A stretch of 64,000 nucleotides of DNA, from NCBI GenBank assembly GCA_902555985.1, contig CACDUI010000006.1:1709-65708 (forward strand), in the 5' to 3' direction. This DNA is from an uncultured Candidatus Actinomarina sp. GTDB taxonomy: Bacteria > Actinomycetota > Acidimicrobiia > Actinomarinales > Actinomarinaceae. Both the position numbers and the translations under genes were made by a program. Shown in pieces: positions 7,996 to 56,921 of this stretch; position 1 is the first letter of the stretch, and the number at the start of each line of letters is the position of its first letter. The notes beneath the pieces were generated by a model that searched no databases, was not told the origin of the DNA, and saw only the letters and a list, made by a program, of their open reading frames with translations.

Positions 7996-8445
7996 ATGAA
8001 AATCTATAGAGATAGGAATAGTCTGCTGCTCCCACTTCTCAGGGGAAGTCTTCTTACATACATTGGAATAGATAATATTATTTCAGGACCTTTTAGAAAC
8101 TTAATGATTACTTATTTTAAATTAGGAGATTTTGGATCAAACGCAAGGGAGGAATATCTATATTATCTTCTATTATTTTTTGGTTTACTACAGTTATTTA
8201 TATCTATTCAAAGCATATTCCAACCAGTGATTGAAGTTGTTGACACAAAAATAGTGCTCCGCACAAAGGAAAAAACACTTTCTGTAATCAGAAATACATT
8301 TGATATAACAAACATTGAATTAGTAGAGGATAATTTTCTAAAGATATCATTTGGTGAAGAGATATACAATATTCAAATTGATGATGTTCCAATTAGTGAG
8401 ATTGATAATATTTTTCCATCATTTAACTTTCAAGAAGAAGAATAA
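7996..8445 (+). CDS. Hypothetical membrane-associated protein
   Basis: 149-aa ORF with two hydrophobic segments. Confidence 0.5.
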   Translation: MKIYRDRNSLLLPLLRGSLLTYIGIDNIISGPFRNLMITYFKLGDFGSNAREEYLYYLLLFFGLLQLFISIQSIFQPVIEVVDTKIVLRTKEKTLSVIRNTFDITNIELVEDNFLKISFGEEIYNIQIDDVPISEIDNIFPSFNFQEEE

Positions 8446-8522
8446 GTTACTTGCATTAGGAATATAGTCATTGATGCTCAAAATGGGAACAAAACCTCGC
8501 GAAAAATACATTAGTAAATATC

Positions 8523-8551
8523 TTGCATAAGAACAAAAACTGACGTATATT
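8523..8551 (+). promoter_or_regulatory. Sigma-70-type promoter of candidate sRNA 1 (TTGCAT-17-TATATT)
   Basis: -35 TTGCAT at 8523-8528, 17-nt spacer, -10 TATATT at 8546-8551. Confidence 0.5.
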
Positions 8552-8556
8552 TATAG

Positions 8557-8646
8557 AACACTATCGGAAAAGAAATCGCAAGATTGAAAAGAAGATAGGA
8601 TAAAAAATCCCGGAAGGTCGCAAGATCAATCGGGATTTTTGCTTTT
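8557..8646 (+). ncRNA. Candidate small RNA 1 (~90 nt), unknown family
   Basis: Predicted TSS is ~6-7 nt after the -10. Hairpin AATC-GCAA-GATT at 8574-8585. A long 3' hairpin AAAAATCCCGG/AA/GGTC-GCAA-GATC/AA/TCGGGATTTTT (8603-8640) is followed by a T-rich tail. No ATG in the transcript. Confidence 0.5.
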
Positions 8647-8722
8647 GTCCTTAAATAATTTTGAAGTATGAAATTATAAAACTGATGTATAAAAGTTCGC
8701 GAAAAAAAGATCCAGAAATATC

Positions 8723-8751
8723 TTGCTTAAATCACAAAACTACTGTATTTT
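8723..8751 (+). promoter_or_regulatory. Sigma-70-type promoter of candidate sRNA 2 (TTGCTT-17-TATTTT)
   Basis: -35 TTGCTT at 8723-8728, 17-nt spacer, -10 TATTTT at 8746-8751. Exactly 200 nt downstream of the unit-1 promoter. Confidence 0.5.
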
Positions 8752-8756
8752 TAAAT

Positions 8757-8846
8757 AACTATAAGAAATGAAGTCGCAAGACCTAATTGAAGATAGTAAG
8801 AAAATCCCGGAAGGTCGCAAGATCAATCGGGATTTTCACTTTTTAG
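8757..8846 (+). ncRNA. Candidate small RNA 2 (~90 nt), paralog of sRNA 1
   Basis: Hairpin GTC-GCAA-GAC (8773-8782) has a G-C pair where unit 1 has A-T. The 3' hairpin/terminator block is identical (8801-8836) and is followed by TTTTCACTTTTT. Confidence 0.5.
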
Positions 8847-9008
8847 AGGGTTTTTTACTCAAAAAAGCACAAAGACTCCCTGTGGCTGTAAATTTTTGTT
8901 TTATCGGCTTTAGAAGTGGCTCAAAGCACGAAAGGAAGTCCTAACTTTAATTTTAATATTCTTTTGTTTTTCTTTTAAAAATAAGAAAAAATTCATATAA
9001 TTACAAGT

Positions 9009-11381
9009 ATGAAAAGGTCAATAAACATAGGCATTATTCTATTTTTATTGTTTCAAGCTTGTTCTGGTGGAGAAAATGTTGAAAATCAGGCTTCTGTTGA
9101 GCCTATATCAGAAAATACCCCTATTAACCCACCTCCGGGAGAAAATAATCCACCTCCACCTCAAGGAGAAAATAACCCACCTCCGGGAGAAAATAATCCA
9201 CCTCCACCTCCACCTCAAGGAGAAAATAATATTGATAGAGCTCTACAAATTATTGAGGATGCAAATGATGACGTCCTAGATTGCATTAACAGAGAGCTTC
9301 CTACAGATATATTTCAAAGAATTGTTAACGATCTCAACCCAGACAATTATGAGGCAGGAATCATTATTGCTTGTTTTGAAGACCCGGGTAGTTCAAATAA
9401 TATAGCGCAACCACCTCCAGACGAAAATAATCAAGGTGAGAATCAAGGCTCAACACCACAACAAAGTAAACAACCAACAGAGGCAGAAGGCAATCAAGGA
9501 AATTCTTGGTATAGCTTAAATGTTTATGAATACACCACAAGCTACAGTCCTGCAACCTCTAACAACAATACTGGATTCGGTTTAGACGAGTCAGGCGATA
9601 TTTTACTTTCAGGATATGGGTTTAATGACTCCGGTGGATCTACAAAACTTAATCACCCAGTTTCTATATCAGCAAACCATGGCAAGCTTGCCGTCACAGA
9701 TAGGTTTAACAATAGAGTGTTAATTTGGAACTCTATACCAAGTGTAAATACTGCACCAGATTTAGTATTAGGTCAGTCTAATTTTACAACTCATAATTCA
9801 GGTACCGGTTTAAACAATTTAGATTTTCCAGGACAGGTGGTAATAACCCCGGATGGTAAAGTATTGATTGCTGATTCAGATAATAATAGAGTCCTTGTGT
9901 GGACATCTTTTCCAACTACATCAGGACAACCAGCAGACTATGCGTTACCTATTACAAGCTATGTAAATTTTGGAGATTCGTGGCCTTGGGGTGTTTGGTC
10001 AGATGGAACTAAAGTCATTGTCACTGCAACAGTTGCAAAGTCAGTATTATTTTGGAACACATTCCCTGGACCAAGCACGGCTCCTGATGTTGTTTTGACT
10101 TCTTCTCAAGTTGGTACTCCCAGATCAATTACATCTGACGGAAATTATGTAATGCTTGGTGATGAAAATGCTAACGGCCCTTGTATTGGCCAAAATGGTA
10201 CAAGATCTACACATATTTGGACTTCTTGGCCAACGTCTTCTAGAGATCCAGACGCATGTATCGACAACTGGTTAGCAAGTGCTATTTATGAATCAAAGAT
10301 TTATGGTATTGCAGCAGGAGGTGAAACTCTTTATTTTTATGATGAATTGTATACAACAACAGAAGATCTAAAAGCAAAAGTTAAATTAGCTAATCCGGGT
10401 GAAGGTCATCGCTGGGCTGGAGGAGATGATGGTGGAGCAACTGTTGCTGATGGAAAATTATTTATCGCAGAGTACAACGGTAATAGAATATCGGTATTCG
10501 ATAATCTGCCAAGTTCTCCAGCAGATAATCCTGACTGGGCATTATTAGCAGACGAACCAACAGACTATCCATTACTAGATGAATTTATTATTCAGAATCC
10601 AATTATCGATTCAAATGGCAAAATGTTATTTGTGTCTTCTGACTTTGATAGATCATTATCTATATGGAAACAATTACCTGGTAGTTCAGCTGCAAAGCCA
10701 GATATTGTTATGAGAAGGTTTGATCAAGCACCGTGGGATATGGTTGTTATTGATAACGAAGTATATTTAGCAGGTGGTAGCAGTGTATTCGGCTGGAAAG
10801 ATATTGAGAAAACTATCAGTAGTGGTAATTTCAGTTTTGACATTAACGCACAAACAATAGGTAGTGTAACGTTTCAGGGAGTTCGTGGAGTTGCATACAA
10901 TGGAACTTTCTTTGCAGTTGCAGATGCTGGTTCAGATACTATTTATGTTTGGGAGGGTGTACCAAACACATCAGACAACCCACTTTATTCTCTTTCAGGG
11001 TTAACAAACCTTGGTCGCATTGATATGAATGAAACCCATCTCGCAATAGGTTGCTACCCTGGTGGCACTGGTTTTAAAGTTTTAGAACTTTCAACTCTTG
11101 GCTCACCAGAATATAAAACTGTACCCGGTCAAGACTGCCCTTCAGAAGTAAGTTTTAACAGTAAGGGATTTTTTATCCCAAGTAATGACAAAATAATTGG
11201 TTGGAATTCTGTTGGAGATGCTTTAGCTGGCAATGCTCCAACAATGAGTTTTGGTGGGCGCACAGATAAATCAAATATGGGAACAAAAATGGCGGCTGGT
11301 ATTGGATGGGATGGATTTCACTTTTGGGTTGGGGAGTATAAATTTTCTAATAGATTACTTGGCTTTGCACCTTCAAAATGA
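9009..11381 (+). CDS. Large lipoprotein with Pro-rich GENN(P)n repeats and NHL-type beta-propeller repeats
   Basis: Lipobox LFQACSGG. NPPPGENNPPPPQGENN repeats. Recurrent DRFNNRVLIWNS / DSDNNRVLVW / EYNGNRISVFD NHL-like blades. Confidence 0.75.
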   Translation: MKRSINIGIILFLLFQACSGGENVENQASVEPISENTPINPPPGENNPPPPQGENNPPPGENNPPPPPPQGENNIDRALQIIEDANDDVLDCINRELPTDIFQRIVNDLNPDNYEAGIIIACFEDPGSSNNIAQPPPDENNQGENQGSTPQQSKQPTEAEGNQGNSWYSLNVYEYTTSYSPATSNNNTGFGLDESGDILLSGYGFNDSGGSTKLNHPVSISANHGKLAVTDRFNNRVLIWNSIPSVNTAPDLVLGQSNFTTHNSGTGLNNLDFPGQVVITPDGKVLIADSDNNRVLVWTSFPTTSGQPADYALPITSYVNFGDSWPWGVWSDGTKVIVTATVAKSVLFWNTFPGPSTAPDVVLTSSQVGTPRSITSDGNYVMLGDENANGPCIGQNGTRSTHIWTSWPTSSRDPDACIDNWLASAIYESKIYGIAAGGETLYFYDELYTTTEDLKAKVKLANPGEGHRWAGGDDGGATVADGKLFIAEYNGNRISVFDNLPSSPADNPDWALLADEPTDYPLLDEFIIQNPIIDSNGKMLFVSSDFDRSLSIWKQLPGSSAAKPDIVMRRFDQAPWDMVVIDNEVYLAGGSSVFGWKDIEKTISSGNFSFDINAQTIGSVTFQGVRGVAYNGTFFAVADAGSDTIYVWEGVPNTSDNPLYSLSGLTNLGRIDMNETHLAIGCYPGGTGFKVLELSTLGSPEYKTVPGQDCPSEVSFNSKGFFIPSNDKIIGWNSVGDALAGNAPTMSFGGRTDKSNMGTKMAAGIGWDGFHFWVGEYKFSNRLLGFAPSK
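9128..9230 (+). repeat. In-frame tandem DNA repeat (CCACCTCC(N)GGAGAAAATAA units) encoding the PPP(Q)GENN repeats
   Basis: Four near-identical units of 21-30 nt are read directly from the sequence. Confidence 0.8.
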
Positions 11382-12637
11382 TTCTGAATAATTCAAACAC
11401 AAAAACTTTTTTACTTTTGCTAACTTTTTTTATCTTTTCGTGTGGAGGTGATTCAGCTAATAATTCTAATGATTCTGCTCAAATAGATACTGCGAACGAA
11501 ATTCAAGATGAGCCATTAACTAATTCAAATAATGAATCTGAAAAAGAGAAGGATGAACAAACTAGTAAAAACATAGCTAATATAAATGAAGTCCTTAAAG
11601 ACTTTCCACAAGGCGCCCTTTCCTTTTTATCTCCAAAAGAACAAGAATGTATTGCTGAAAATTCATCTACAGAGTCGCTAAAAGATATGGAAAAAAACTT
11701 AATGCAAGAGGGTGCAATTCTTCAACAACAAATGGATTATTTTACTAACTGCAATATACCTCCTCCGCCTGGGATTGGCATAAAAGAAGCCCCCAATCCT
11801 GATGAAAGCAATAGTTCTGATTCAACAAGCAATATGGGTTCACTTGTAAAAATTGAAAATCTAACATCTTTAGAATTTTTTGGTACAAGCCCTCACCTTG
11901 AGAGAGTAAATGATTCAACAGTGAGATTATTTTATAACGATTTAGGTGGTGTTGCTGTACTGCTTTGCAGTAATGATTTAATTTGTGAAACTCAGGGAAG
12001 TATCCAATTCATTACAGATCTTACGATCGTTCAAACTAAAGCTGGCGAGAGAAGGGGATATTTTGTTGAGCTTAACCCAAACACAAGAGAGAGTGGTATT
12101 TTTACAGCTTCTTTCTCTGAGGATGGACTGACCTACTCAAACAAAACACCATTAGGAATTACCGCTCAAAAAGATGAAGTTGCTTGGGGAGTACCCGATG
12201 CGGTTGTTATGCCAAACGGTCTTGTTAGGGTTTACTGGGTATACACAGAAGATAGAACTTCGCCAGAAAAAATAGTAAGTGCAACTTCAAAAACTGAAAA
12301 AGGAATAGAGTTTACACTTGATCCTGGTTATAGAGTTGATAATGGTTATGTAGATTTTGAAGTACTGAAAGCTGAAGATGGTAATTGGCAAGCATTGATG
12401 TCTTACACCCCACACTATTTACCTTCTACCCCACAGAGTTTATTTTATGCAACTTCCAAAGACGGCTTAACCTGGGAGTTTAGCGAAGAGAGAATTACTC
12501 CAAGAGATTATAGCTACTTAGATCCAACAGGAATTCCGATTGATGATAAATCATATTTGATAGTTATGGGTGGGGCACCTAACGCTATGGGAGATAGAGA
12601 GTACCAACTATTTACTGCAGAATTAATTCTTCCCTAA
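11378..12637 (+). CDS. Lipoprotein with Asp-box (BNR) motifs, glycoside-hydrolase/sialidase-like propeller (tentative)
   Basis: Lipobox FIFSCGG. Asp-box-like SEDGLTY and SKDGLTW. ATGA overlap with the upstream gene. Confidence 0.6.
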   Translation: MILNNSNTKTFLLLLTFFIFSCGGDSANNSNDSAQIDTANEIQDEPLTNSNNESEKEKDEQTSKNIANINEVLKDFPQGALSFLSPKEQECIAENSSTESLKDMEKNLMQEGAILQQQMDYFTNCNIPPPPGIGIKEAPNPDESNSSDSTSNMGSLVKIENLTSLEFFGTSPHLERVNDSTVRLFYNDLGGVAVLLCSNDLICETQGSIQFITDLTIVQTKAGERRGYFVELNPNTRESGIFTASFSEDGLTYSNKTPLGITAQKDEVAWGVPDAVVMPNGLVRVYWVYTEDRTSPEKIVSATSKTEKGIEFTLDPGYRVDNGYVDFEVLKAEDGNWQALMSYTPHYLPSTPQSLFYATSKDGLTWEFSEERITPRDYSYLDPTGIPIDDKSYLIVMGGAPNAMGDREYQLFTAELILP

Positions 12638-54939: not shown

Positions 54940-54984
54940 TTCGCGAAAAAAATCTTTTTACAGACGATTTGAGACGTTTAATGT
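54940..54984 (+). promoter_or_regulatory. whiB-like gene promoter region: TTCGCGAAAAAAA element plus TTTACA-16-TAATGT
   Basis: Palindrome TTCGCGAA at 54940-54947. -35-like TTTACA at 54957-54962. -10-like TAATGT at 54979-54984, 6 nt before ATG 54991. Confidence 0.4.
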
Positions 54985-54990
54985 TTAAAT

Positions 54991-55245
54991 ATGCTTCAAA
55001 TTAAAGTTTCAACATGGCAGTATGATGCTCTTTGTAGACAACACAGTAGCAACTTGTTCTTTCCTCCTGCAACTTTTGAAAAAAAAGAAGATCGTGAAAA
55101 AAGAGAAGCAAAAGCAAAAGCTGTATGTAGTGGTTGCCCAGTCAAAATTGAATGTCTCGATGAGGCAAATGAAATATCTGAACCTTTTGGTGTTTGGGGT
55201 GGCATGAACGAGGTTGAGAGAAAAAGAGAAATAGTATACTTTTAA
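54991..55245 (+). CDS. whiB: WhiB-family transcriptional regulator
   Basis: Four Cys (C-x29-CSGC-x5-C pattern), GVWGG turn and a basic C-terminal tail. Confidence 0.9.
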   Translation: MLQIKVSTWQYDALCRQHSSNLFFPPATFEKKEDREKREAKAKAVCSGCPVKIECLDEANEISEPFGVWGGMNEVERKREIVYF

Positions 55246-56921
55246 TCAATTCTTCTTCTTAGACCTTCACTATTTATTTTCTTTGTAATCAATTGTCTAT
55301 CTAAAAACTCTAAAAATGGAATTGTATATTTTCTTGATAAATTAGACACTTCTTTAAATTCTTTTACTGAAAAATCCTGAGGCAGGTTTTCAATAATTTT
55401 AATTAAGTCACTTCTTTGCTTTTTAGAAATGATTAATTTTTCTGATACTCTAAATAGATAGCCATTCATAAAAAGCGACTTAATTGCTTCAGAATCATAT
55501 TTTTCTAATTCAATAATCTCAACATTCAAGCTATTACCCAATAAATTATTTATTTCGTTAAAAATATTTATATCAATATTTTTTACTAAATTTTTTGAAA
55601 CTTGATCTTTATTAATTTTTAAAGATGAAAAGTGTTTACTTAAATCATCAATTTCTTTTTCATCTACAAAAAAGTTTTCAAATAGATATTTTTTTAGTCC
55701 AAATTTATTTACTATTTCAATATTTGATTTTAAATTTTCTTCAACAGCAGCTAACTTCTCGTTAGCAATATATAACTCTCCGATTTTTTTATAAGCAATT
55801 TCATCTTTTGTAAAATATTCTGGAATCATTGTGAAGAATATTTCAGAGTCTACATTTTTTTGTTTTCTAAAATTTTTAACTATCTTTGATATTAGAAAAG
55901 TGTTGTTTGTAGAAAATATTACACTTCCGCCATTAAATGTATTTTTCGATAGGTTGTGTAGTAAAACTTTTTGGTAGTCAGGAGTGCATAAACTTTCTGA
56001 TAGGTGAATTATCCCAATTGTTTTTTTGTTTATGTTTATAGTTGTATATTTTTTGATAATTTGATTGTGAGTTCCGATAAAAAGTCTTAACGTACCTTTC
56101 CTAAACAAATTTTTTTCATCAGTTTCAGTGTTTATAAAAATAAAATTTTTAGATTTCACTTTTTTATTTGTTAACAAGTTTCCTTTTTTTATTTCATATG
56201 CATTATTTTTCTTGATAGATATGGCCAGTCTTGATGATGAAGAGCTTGATGAAATTATTTTTTTTCCGATAGTTTGAATTTCTCGAATATCTAATACAGA
56301 CTCTTGATTGCCAACAAATATGTTTTCGAATTCCATGTCTTTACTAGCTGTTCCTGTTACAACTTTCCCAATTCCCTCAATAGTAAAAACTCTATCAACC
56401 CACATTGAAGGAGGGTTACTAATGTTCTCAACTTTATTGAAAAATTCAAAAATACTTTTTTTTACTGTTAATTTATCACTATTTATCGAACTGAACTCTA
56501 TCACACCATATTGAAGATCTTTAAAGTTCCTCAATTTACTTTCTAAATCACTTACATTAAATGTAGATTCTTCTTTGTCTGTTTTTGTTAGGAAAAAAAG
56601 TAAGTTATTAATACCAAGTTTATACAATGATAAAAAATGCTCTTCTGACTGTTGAGACCAACCTTGTGTAGTGTCTATACAGAATAAAACACCATCTACA
56701 TTGGAAAAGCCATTTATTGTATTCTTAAAATAATCGGAATGTCCAGGTACATCTACAATAGAAAATATTTTGCTTTTATATTCGAAGTAGGTGTACCCAA
56801 GATTTATAGTTAGCCCACGCTGTTTTTCCTCTTTTAAACGATCTGTTTCTTGCCCAGTTAAAAAGTTTACAAGTGTAGATTTACCATGATCAACATGGCC
56901 AGCTGTTGCCAGAACGGTCAT
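55242..56921 (-). CDS. selB: Selenocysteine-specific elongation factor SelB
   Basis: ATAGHVDHGKSTL G1 motif, DVPGH, and a long winged-helix-rich C-terminal extension. Overlaps selA by 4 nt. Confidence 0.8.
   Translation of the reverse strand: MTVLATAGHVDHGKSTLVNFLTGQETDRLKEEKQRGLTINLGYTYFEYKSKIFSIVDVPGHSDYFKNTINGFSNVDGVLFCIDTTQGWSQQSEEHFLSLYKLGINNLLFFLTKTDKEESTFNVSDLESKLRNFKDLQYGVIEFSSINSDKLTVKKSIFEFFNKVENISNPPSMWVDRVFTIEGIGKVVTGTASKDMEFENIFVGNQESVLDIREIQTIGKKIISSSSSSSRLAISIKKNNAYEIKKGNLLTNKKVKSKNFIFINTETDEKNLFRKGTLRLFIGTHNQIIKKYTTININKKTIGIIHLSESLCTPDYQKVLLHNLSKNTFNGGSVIFSTNNTFLISKIVKNFRKQKNVDSEIFFTMIPEYFTKDEIAYKKIGELYIANEKLAAVEENLKSNIEIVNKFGLKKYLFENFFVDEKEIDDLSKHFSSLKINKDQVSKNLVKNIDINIFNEINNLLGNSLNVEIIELEKYDSEAIKSLFMNGYLFRVSEKLIISKKQRSDLIKIIENLPQDFSVKEFKEVSNLSRKYTIPFLEFLDRQLITKKINSEGLRRRID

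Follow-up and report, generated by a model that had tools for sequence, protein, structure and literature searches.

Sibling small RNAs (sRNAs) such as OmrA/OmrB of Escherichia coli, PrrF1/PrrF2 of Pseudomonas, Qrr1-5 of Vibrio and the CiaR-dependent csRNAs of Streptococcus are generally encoded as several paralogues of ~80-110 nt per genome, some of them adjacent and head-to-tail. Each is served by its own promoter behind the same conserved site and by its own intrinsic terminator, and the ends of the RNAs are near-identical while internal segments differ among paralogues. The same layout is seen in two units of ~198 nt (n = 2) located head-to-tail at positions 8491-8890 of a 64-kb stretch of DNA from an uncultured Candidatus Actinomarina sp. 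(contig CACDUI010000006.1; hereafter ‘the window’, whose coordinates are used throughout). We consider it very likely that these units are real RNA genes and, judging from their sequence, probable that they are paralogous genes (named T1 and T2 herein) of an undescribed sRNA family restricted to Actinomarinales, whose members would be independently transcribed siblings acting in trans. Unlike the siblings named above, with which they share no sequence or structural similarity, the T RNAs have no match in Rfam, belong to an actinobacterial host in which Hfq is not expected, and are encoded by copies that are interleaved with variable genes.

An earlier note on this DNA had proposed that a duplicated promoter-hairpin-terminator module encodes two independently promoted and terminated noncoding RNAs of an undescribed family. 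The elements were found in the places it gave, and the comparative tests described below are all in support of the proposal. Direct-repeat families (D2-D4) establish a period of 197-200 nt, and alignment of positions 8480-8680 to positions 8680-8880 yields a mean column identity of 83%. As the note had also observed, a 36-nt block (AAAATCCCGGAAGGTCGCAAGATCAATCGGGATTTT) is 100% identical in the two units (8604-8639 and 8801-8836), and a T-rich tail follows it. The 26-nt terminator core occurs twice in the window, where 0.00 occurrences are expected, and the octamer TCGCAAGA occurs four times rather than the expected 1.0, with all four occurrences forming the tips of the unit hairpins. When compared with shuffled controls, the + strands of units 1 and 2 fold with z scores of -4.1 and -5.1, respectively, versus -1.1 and -2.5 for the - strands. 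The impression that terminators are otherwise nearly absent was roughly right: a scan of both strands of the 64 kb for hairpins of -10 kcal/mol or lower followed by a T-run returned 17 candidates, including these two.

Both genes are oriented on the + strand. In unit 1, the 10-nt upstream motif TCGCGAAAAA (8497-8506) begins 26 nt upstream of the -35 TTG in a predicted promoter composed of TTGCAT (8523-8528), a 17-nt spacer and TATATT (8546-8551). The predicted T1 RNA of ~88-90 nt extends over positions 8556-8646, and is matched at 8556-8644 with 105 bits by a covariance model of the family (R1; 88 positions, 24 pairs). Its fold includes an outer stem P1 (8561-8565 with 8594-8598), an internal loop formed by two 8-nt sides made only of purines, and a hairpin P2 (8574-8577 with 8582-8585) capped by a GCAA loop (8578-8581). 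In the terminator (8603-8646), which is evident from both the fold and pair statistics, positions 8603-8613 pair with 8630-8640 in a lower stem of 11 bp; a 2x2 AA/AA internal loop separates this from the 4-bp upper stem (GGUC/GAUC), which is topped by a second GCAA loop (8620-8623), and the U-rich tail UUUUUGCUUUU follows. Unit 2 repeats this order with TCGCGAAAAA at 8697-8706, a promoter of TTGCTT (8723-8728), a 17-nt spacer and TATTTT (8746-8751), and a T2 RNA at 8754-8848 (model match 8754-8841, 106.5 bits). Its P1 pairs 8758-8762 with 8793-8797, its P2 pairs 8773-8775 with 8780-8782 around GCAA (8776-8779), and its terminator (8800-8837) is followed by the tail CACUUUUU. Thus, the -35 and -10 elements with their 17-nt spacing and the GCAA-capped first hairpins (8574-8585 and 8773-8782) are present in both units as originally described. 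The minimum free energy (MFE) is -25.4 kcal/mol for T1 (z = -4.1 to -4.4) and -26.8 kcal/mol for T2 (z = -5.1), and with MFE frequencies of 0.34-0.46 in the ensemble these folds are stable and dominant.

No known RNA family accounts for the units, in keeping with the earlier note. A covariance search of the whole window with Rfam 15 gave no match at the gathering score, and at E<=10 the best matches within positions 8300-9100 scored 12-23 bits where the thresholds are 40-197, and for the most part they lie on the wrong strand and owe their scores to the terminators. Among the families of particular relevance, none of 6C, mini-ykkC, the IMES RNAs and Bacteria_small_SRP reaches its Rfam covariance threshold. 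Our literature searches likewise found no description of these RNAs and no report of their transcripts.

Three described types of RNA nevertheless resemble the T RNAs in part. The 6C RNA (RF01066), which is widespread in actinobacteria and is defined by its C-rich loops, is likewise ~80-90 nt long, has two stem-loops, is independently transcribed (as the T RNAs appear to be from their sequence) and is more conserved than its neighbours. However, both T loops are GNRA tetraloops and no 6C match is seen even at E<=10, as had been anticipated from the lack of C-rich loops. Guanidine-II (mini-ykkC) RNAs also consist of two small hairpins with the same conserved tetraloop and closing pairs, although their loops are ACGR rather than GNRA, whereas the second hairpin of the T RNAs is a constitutive terminator, no consistent gene class lies downstream and there is no Rfam match. 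The IMES-1 to IMES-4, Yfr103 and Yfr2-family RNAs are, like the T RNAs, lineage-specific multi-copy noncoding RNAs of abundant marine plankton, but they are unrelated in sequence and structure, and again Rfam gives no match.

Homologues of the units are numerous. A search pattern, checked on the window and on known loci before its use on a genome collection, identified 47 loci, all in Ca. Actinomarina, the OCS155 cluster or single-amplified genomes (SAGs) and metagenome-assembled genomes (MAGs) of Actinomarinales. The note's guess of a low-GC actinobacterium as the host is borne out by these matches. In the genome loci, 89 matches to model R1 scored above 90 bits, some of them copies not caught by the pattern, and the model gave at least 112 matches in 80 marine metagenome contigs. 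In total, more than 200 homologous copies were collected, all of them from Actinomarinales genomes or marine metagenomes, and the family is much larger than the copies sampled. Viral contigs held no copies of the R1 family, and we saw no sign that the units serve as phage attachment sites, a role we had entertained and set aside.

The copies fall into three paralogue types, T1 (unit 1), T2 (unit 2) and T3, which differ in the 5' domain and the tail. Genomes of sufficient contiguity carry three or four copies at two loci. The purine-rich internal-loop and linker sequences differ among the three types and are conserved within each. T1 and T2 are old paralogue types, with inserted genes between them in other genomes, and their adjacency in the window does not stem from a recent local duplication. 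According to a preprint, Actinomarina genomes are nearly devoid of internal repeats, with no more than two in most of them and a median repeat length of 152 bp (10.64898/2026.04.03.716425), and we infer from these figures that the T units fit as the main repeats of such genomes.

Evidence for a structured RNA comes from alignments of 56 and 68 distinct sequences. Overall, 95-96% of the cells at paired positions can pair, versus 27-52% when the partners are slid by one to three columns. The covariation score is 0.14-0.16, compared with 0.09-0.10 for shuffled alignments (none of 500 shuffles reaches the observed value) and 0.006-0.05 for slid ones, and two-sided changes are observed in seven or eight pairs. 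The terminator, an interrupted stem of 15 bp with a U tail, is paired in 100% of the cells of both alignments and includes three or four covarying pairs. Its basal pair may be A-U, G-C or G-U, pairs 57-76 and 58-75 vary among G-C, A-U and G-U, pair 63-70 changes from U-A to C-G together with a GAGA loop, and one sequence replaces a C-G pair by U-A. The compensatory change noticed earlier in the first hairpin is real and general, as T1 has A-U at P2 pair 20-29 where T2 and T3 have G-C, throughout 112 metagenome copies and all distinct genome-derived sequences. P1 has three invariant pairs, whereas the other two change from C-G to U-A or A-U and from U-A to A-U, with mismatches in addition; we therefore regard this modelled stem as plausible and partly supported.

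The existence of P1 also bears on GAAGATAG, which is conserved in both units between the small GCAA hairpin and the 36-nt block, and which the earlier note had taken to be single-stranded. Its conservation holds, but its GAUAG segment pairs with an upstream CUAUC in the MFE fold. Accordingly, the proposal that GAAGAUAG is a free seed for target recognition survives only in part, since about half of it is probably sequestered in P1 through GAUAG-CUAUC pairing that has some compensatory support.

Some features of the hairpins do not vary. Both loops are GNRA in every sequence (GCAA, GAAA, GUAA, GGAA or GAGA), the 2x2 purine internal loop of the terminator never changes, and the G62.U71 pair of its upper stem is retained in all 56 and 68 distinct sequences, even though termination would work equally well without any of these. 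This pattern gives some credence to the view that the RNA is a decoy that sequesters or delivers a protein, with its two UCG-GNRA-AGA hairpins and purine loops perhaps mimicking a natural RNA site. The sequence UCGCAAGA is common to all four T hairpins of the window, and multi-copy genes with A-tract/UP-like promoters suggest a high dosage. One conceivable model for the mimicry is helix 27 of the 16S rRNA of low-GC bacteria, which GGUCGCAAGAU may resemble, GGUCGCAAGAUC being the T-hairpin sequence that would be involved. However, the search yielded neither a candidate protein nor a conserved neighbouring gene for an RNA-binding protein, and C(GNRA)G hairpins are common and stable on thermodynamic grounds alone. 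We consider a decoy unlikely. A more specific version, in which the RNA acts as a CsrA-type GGA decoy or as an anti-Shine-Dalgarno mimic, was rejected because GGA and GGAGG motifs are not conserved across the types.

Conservation of the T RNAs exceeds that of the genes around them. Relative to the window, T1 is 89-93% identical in genomes where the DNA of the adjacent gene for a 149-aa protein and of the histidine phosphatase gene is only 60-66% identical. The T1 sequence has stop codons in all three + frames and single-base insertions and deletions separate the T copies, and thus the constraint is not on a protein. We conclude that purifying selection acts on both the sequence and the pairing of the T RNAs. 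The same observations make it scarcely credible that the 58-codon open reading frame (ORF) at 8768-8944 specifies a real product, even if gene callers have annotated a 48-aa ORF over T2 and the adjoining element X (described below) in some metagenome contigs (L007, L014, L015 and L023). As the earlier note pointed out, this ORF crosses the terminator of unit 2 and has no counterpart in T1; it also has no Pfam match. The related statement that unit 1 contains no ATG is correct for the predicted transcript (8556-8646) and incorrect for the 200-bp unit, whose inter-unit spacer includes ATGs (8668 and 8685). In the homologues whose collection was recommended, pairs are kept by compensatory and wobble changes, and the hairpins rather than an ORF are conserved.

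The sequences upstream of the T RNAs are constrained in a similarly selective manner. In alignments of more than 70 distinct promoters, (A/G)TTCGCGAAAAA is invariant and both the -35 TTG and the -10 TAnnTT are conserved, whereas the sequence is free to vary in the 17-nt spacer and from the motif to the -35 element. For the 66 distinct promoters of the T2/T3 type, the motif, TTG and TAnnTT are at least 90% conserved, compared with 30-70% for the spacer columns. A working promoter preceded by a protein-binding or UP-like site would be expected to show such a pattern, and the T promoters are indeed A-tract/UP-like in sequence. The T1 promoter is not listed by a simple sigma-70 scan because it scores below the 9/12 threshold.

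The upstream motif is almost wholly confined to the family. The TCGCGAAAAA 10-mer occurs 274 times in the Actinomarina DNA that was fetched (1.35 Mb), and 273 of these sites precede a T RNA, which is complete in 269 cases and cut by a contig end in the other four. The sole remaining occurrence (54941-54950, + strand) is located 41 nt before the ATG of a gene for an 84-aa WhiB-like protein (54991-55245, + strand; Pfam Whib, PF02467) that adjoins selB. This second association is itself conserved: across loci L201, L203, L205 and L206, the TTCGCGAAAAAAA motif is kept upstream of WhiB-like orthologues of 85, 73 and 69% amino acid identity, where the surrounding intergenic sequence otherwise differs, and it is degenerate before an orthologue of 66% identity. 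In the WhiB-like promoter, the motif starts 16 nt before the -35 TTG rather than 26 nt as in the T promoters, a difference of exactly one helical turn. These characteristics suggest that the motif common to the two kinds of promoter could be the site of a shared regulator.

Two genomic settings are recognized for the T units. At site A, the order is a histidine phosphatase gene (- strand), the ORF for the 149-aa protein (+ strand), T1, zero to three variable genes, T2 or T3, and element X, after which come zero to three paralogous genes for NHL lipoproteins, an apurinic/apyrimidinic (AP) endonuclease gene and an Orn/DAP decarboxylase gene. The variable genes encode a cytochrome P450, a membrane protein, a convergent GNAT acetyltransferase or NHL-repeat lipoproteins. 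Although T1 and T2 are adjacent in the window, one or two genes lie between them in L011, L023, L032 and others, and genes are inserted between T1 and T2/T3 in L047 and L067 as well, where three T units alternate with single genes (gene-T-gene-T-gene-T). Many marine metagenome contigs encode exactly the protein of the 149-aa ORF (7996-8445), and on every one of them unit 1 comes next. At site B, the order is metK, a gene of the O-acetylhomoserine sulfhydrylase type (Cys_Met_Meta_PP), an alpha/beta hydrolase gene, T1 and a 5'-3' exonuclease gene; in a divergent Actinomarinales lineage, the gene for tRNA-Thr(CGU) follows T1 instead.

The T copies are co-oriented with their neighbours. The distance from the preceding stop codon to the start of a copy is 42-111 nt, and usually 61-78 nt. 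Downstream of T1, the next ATG follows after 31-37 nt or, where the neighbouring gene is convergent, its stop codon lies 1 nt away; for T2 and T3, the gap to the next ATG is 142-177 nt. Given that every copy shares its strand with the next co-directional gene, that these distances are constant, and that a promoter, a structured domain and a terminator succeed one another, each unit could in principle be a cis-acting leader, akin to a riboswitch, whose terminator controls read-through into the downstream gene. We judge this to be very unlikely. The downstream genes are functionally unrelated (P450, 5'-3' exonuclease, tRNA-Thr, NHL lipoproteins, AP endonuclease, convergent acetyltransferase and even another T unit), and in at least five genomes T1 faces a convergent gene only 1 nt away; hence, the units are independent of the identity and orientation of the gene that follows. 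In addition, the downstream genes are served by -10 hexamers of their own, located 6-7 nt ahead of the ATG, and from this spacing look leaderless; no antiterminator pairing is conserved (the only one that could be drawn, GGAU/AUCC, is specific to the window copy), and the T fold is stable and dominant.

A rather unlikely alternative is that the units are mainly punctuation or recombination modules, i.e. DNA-level cassettes of a terminator and an outward promoter that insulate the genes of a very compact genome and mediate single-gene turnover, with the RNA as a by-product. T units are found between almost every gene of the variable locus (for example, in L067 and L047), their spacing is compact, the terminator is their most conserved part, and the next leaderless gene can draw its -35 element from the TTGCTT of the T1 tail. 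The near-absence of other internal repeats in Actinomarina (10.64898/2026.04.03.716425) is also consistent with such a role. In contrast, a terminator has no need of a conserved promoter and upstream motif that are aimed into it, nor of a 45-nt 5' domain whose GNRA loop, covarying hairpin and type-specific loops are nonetheless ~90% identical across the genus. Moreover, the site-B copy resides in a non-variable context, and no integrase or recombinase was found among the neighbours.

The variable locus also invites comparison with integron arrays, in which repeated structured elements (attC) separate single, mostly co-oriented, variable genes. Here, however, no integrase was found among the T neighbours (attC core-site motifs were not specifically searched for). 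Furthermore, attC sites conserve structure and not sequence, whereas T units are ~90% identical in sequence, carry promoters and terminators, show RNA-type constraints and include a copy in a stable context. We also weighed a combined view, which seems quite unlikely to us, wherein T units are both regulatory or decoy RNA genes and the junction modules of an integrase-free cassette array. Homologous exchange between near-identical units would then shuffle, duplicate or delete single genes, and each newcomer gene would automatically gain an upstream terminator and a -35 element. If the T hairpins also mimic helix 27 of 16S rRNA, array dosage and ribosome biology would be linked.

We return to our preferred interpretation of the T units as genes for trans-acting sibling sRNAs. 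Each gene would use its own sigma-70-type promoter behind the invariant TCGCGAAAAA site to produce a ~88-nt transcript. The 5' domain would comprise the short outer P1, which encloses purine-rich internal loops and a GNRA hairpin of 3-4 bp, and the 3' end would be a long, near-invariant intrinsic terminator whose stem includes a 2x2 purine loop and a fixed G.U pair and is capped by another GNRA loop. Discrete and abundant transcripts would result, and these may act in trans as sibling regulators whose type-specific purine-rich loops and linker recognize either RNA partners or a protein partner. The invariant terminator hairpin might then provide a common handle for stability or protein binding, and the upstream site may place all copies under the same regulation as the WhiB-like transcription factor gene. 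T units probably serve additionally as homology anchors for the gain, loss and duplication of genes at site A, since near-identical stretches of 40-150 nt are common to the copies, which are placed between single genes.

Several considerations weigh against this interpretation. Transcription of the T RNAs is deduced from promoter and terminator sequences. P1 is weak: RNAalifold leaves it out of the consensus, and 8-14 distinct sequences lack its innermost pair. In P2, the putative fourth pair (19-30) is open in most sequences. The invariance noted above is partly a matter of ascertainment, as our scans required TCGNAAGA and parts of the terminator, and the pronounced conservation of the terminator would be expected also if termination were its sole function. 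With regard to partners, a duplex target scan of the 64-kb window, which amounts to ~6% of the genome, gave no outlier above background. To our knowledge, Actinobacteria generally lack Hfq, ProQ and CsrA, and a chaperone-dependent mechanism should not be assumed. With these caveats in mind, we regard base pairing as a possible mode of action, somewhat less likely than not. As a separate observation, the best non-self duplex match is a 17-bp complement (with one G.U pair) to the 5' end of T1 at 56255-56275 (+ strand), antisense to selB, and it is probably due to chance.

Ca. Actinomarina are among the smallest free-living cells and belong to the surface ocean's most abundant photoheterotrophs, have never been cultured, and have genomes of ~1.1 Mb with very few regulators. 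Given its ~90% identity across the genus and its three or four copies in a nearly repeat-free genome, the T RNA probably has a major regulatory or structural role in this lineage. The family is an undescribed one, and it is unusual in combining extreme conservation and multiple copies in a genome that ranks with the most streamlined known with a position at the junctions of the variable cassette locus and a motif shared with a WhiB-like gene. It is currently invisible to Rfam-based annotation, and the covariance model can be used at once for genome annotation and for counting transcripts in marine metatranscriptomes. The motif common to the T and WhiB-like promoters offers a first handle on an Actinomarina regulon.

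The T units also mark a small variable cassette locus that differs from the described tRNA-bounded island. The NHL-repeat lipoprotein genes of the window (9009-12637, + strand; 790 and 419 aa) belong to tandem paralogues that number from zero to three among genomes (L055, L058, L032 and others), and from this variation we recognize a small flexible island distinct from the tRNA-bounded one of the literature. The 790-aa lipoprotein carries PPPQGENN-type repeats (9125-9243). Many metagenome contigs end inside the T1/T2 tandem, which indicates that this repeat breaks assemblies, and T units may create chimeric joins between the two loci, a matter of some importance for MAG and SAG quality. In two metagenome contigs (L010 and L018; also L008), the site-A upstream gene is joined across T1 to downstream genes of site B or of another location, and these junctions are either real rearrangements at the repeat or assembly chimeras.

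Additional observations concern the neighbours of the T units. The site-B T1 is always located ~62 nt after the stop codon of a methionine/S-adenosylmethionine cluster (L024, L029, L062 and L066), which is either metF-metE-metK or metK with the sulfhydrylase-type gene and the alpha/beta hydrolase gene. The T RNA that precedes tRNA-Thr(CGU) is separated from it by only 17-35 nt (L060, 3069-3246; L078, L082, L103 and L112), and this proximity raises the possibility that the two RNAs are co-transcribed in that lineage. Genes that look leaderless and lack a Shine-Dalgarno sequence include the NHL lipoprotein gene, with TATAAT seven nucleotides before its ATG (8996-9011), and the WhiB-like gene, with TAATGT six nucleotides before its ATG (54979-54993), and this pattern recurs at many loci.

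A candidate RNA on the minus strand (8856-8946), proposed because of promoter- and terminator-like matches, was dismissed since its folding is unexceptional (z = -0.6) and its hairpin is not conserved in other copies. The same region of the window includes element X, a conserved noncoding block of ~70 nt (8873-8940, + strand) with two GTGGCT direct repeats. This element follows T2/T3 or directly precedes the promoters of AP-endonuclease or NHL-lipoprotein genes (also in L011, L023, L032, L041 and others), and 93 copies, 75 of them distinct, are present in the fetched loci. Insertions and deletions exclude a coding function, and we rejected element X as a structured RNA on the basis of an RNAalifold energy of -3 kcal/mol, with no compensatory pairs and no convincing consensus fold. 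Pairing between T RNAs and element X was likewise rejected: a 13-bp A/U-rich duplex can be drawn by eye for T1, but T2, which is actually adjacent to element X, pairs worse, and we therefore treat the match as chance in AT-rich sequence. Some C-to-U and A-to-G changes among the copies of element X maintain G.U pairs, which hints at an RNA made from the + strand.

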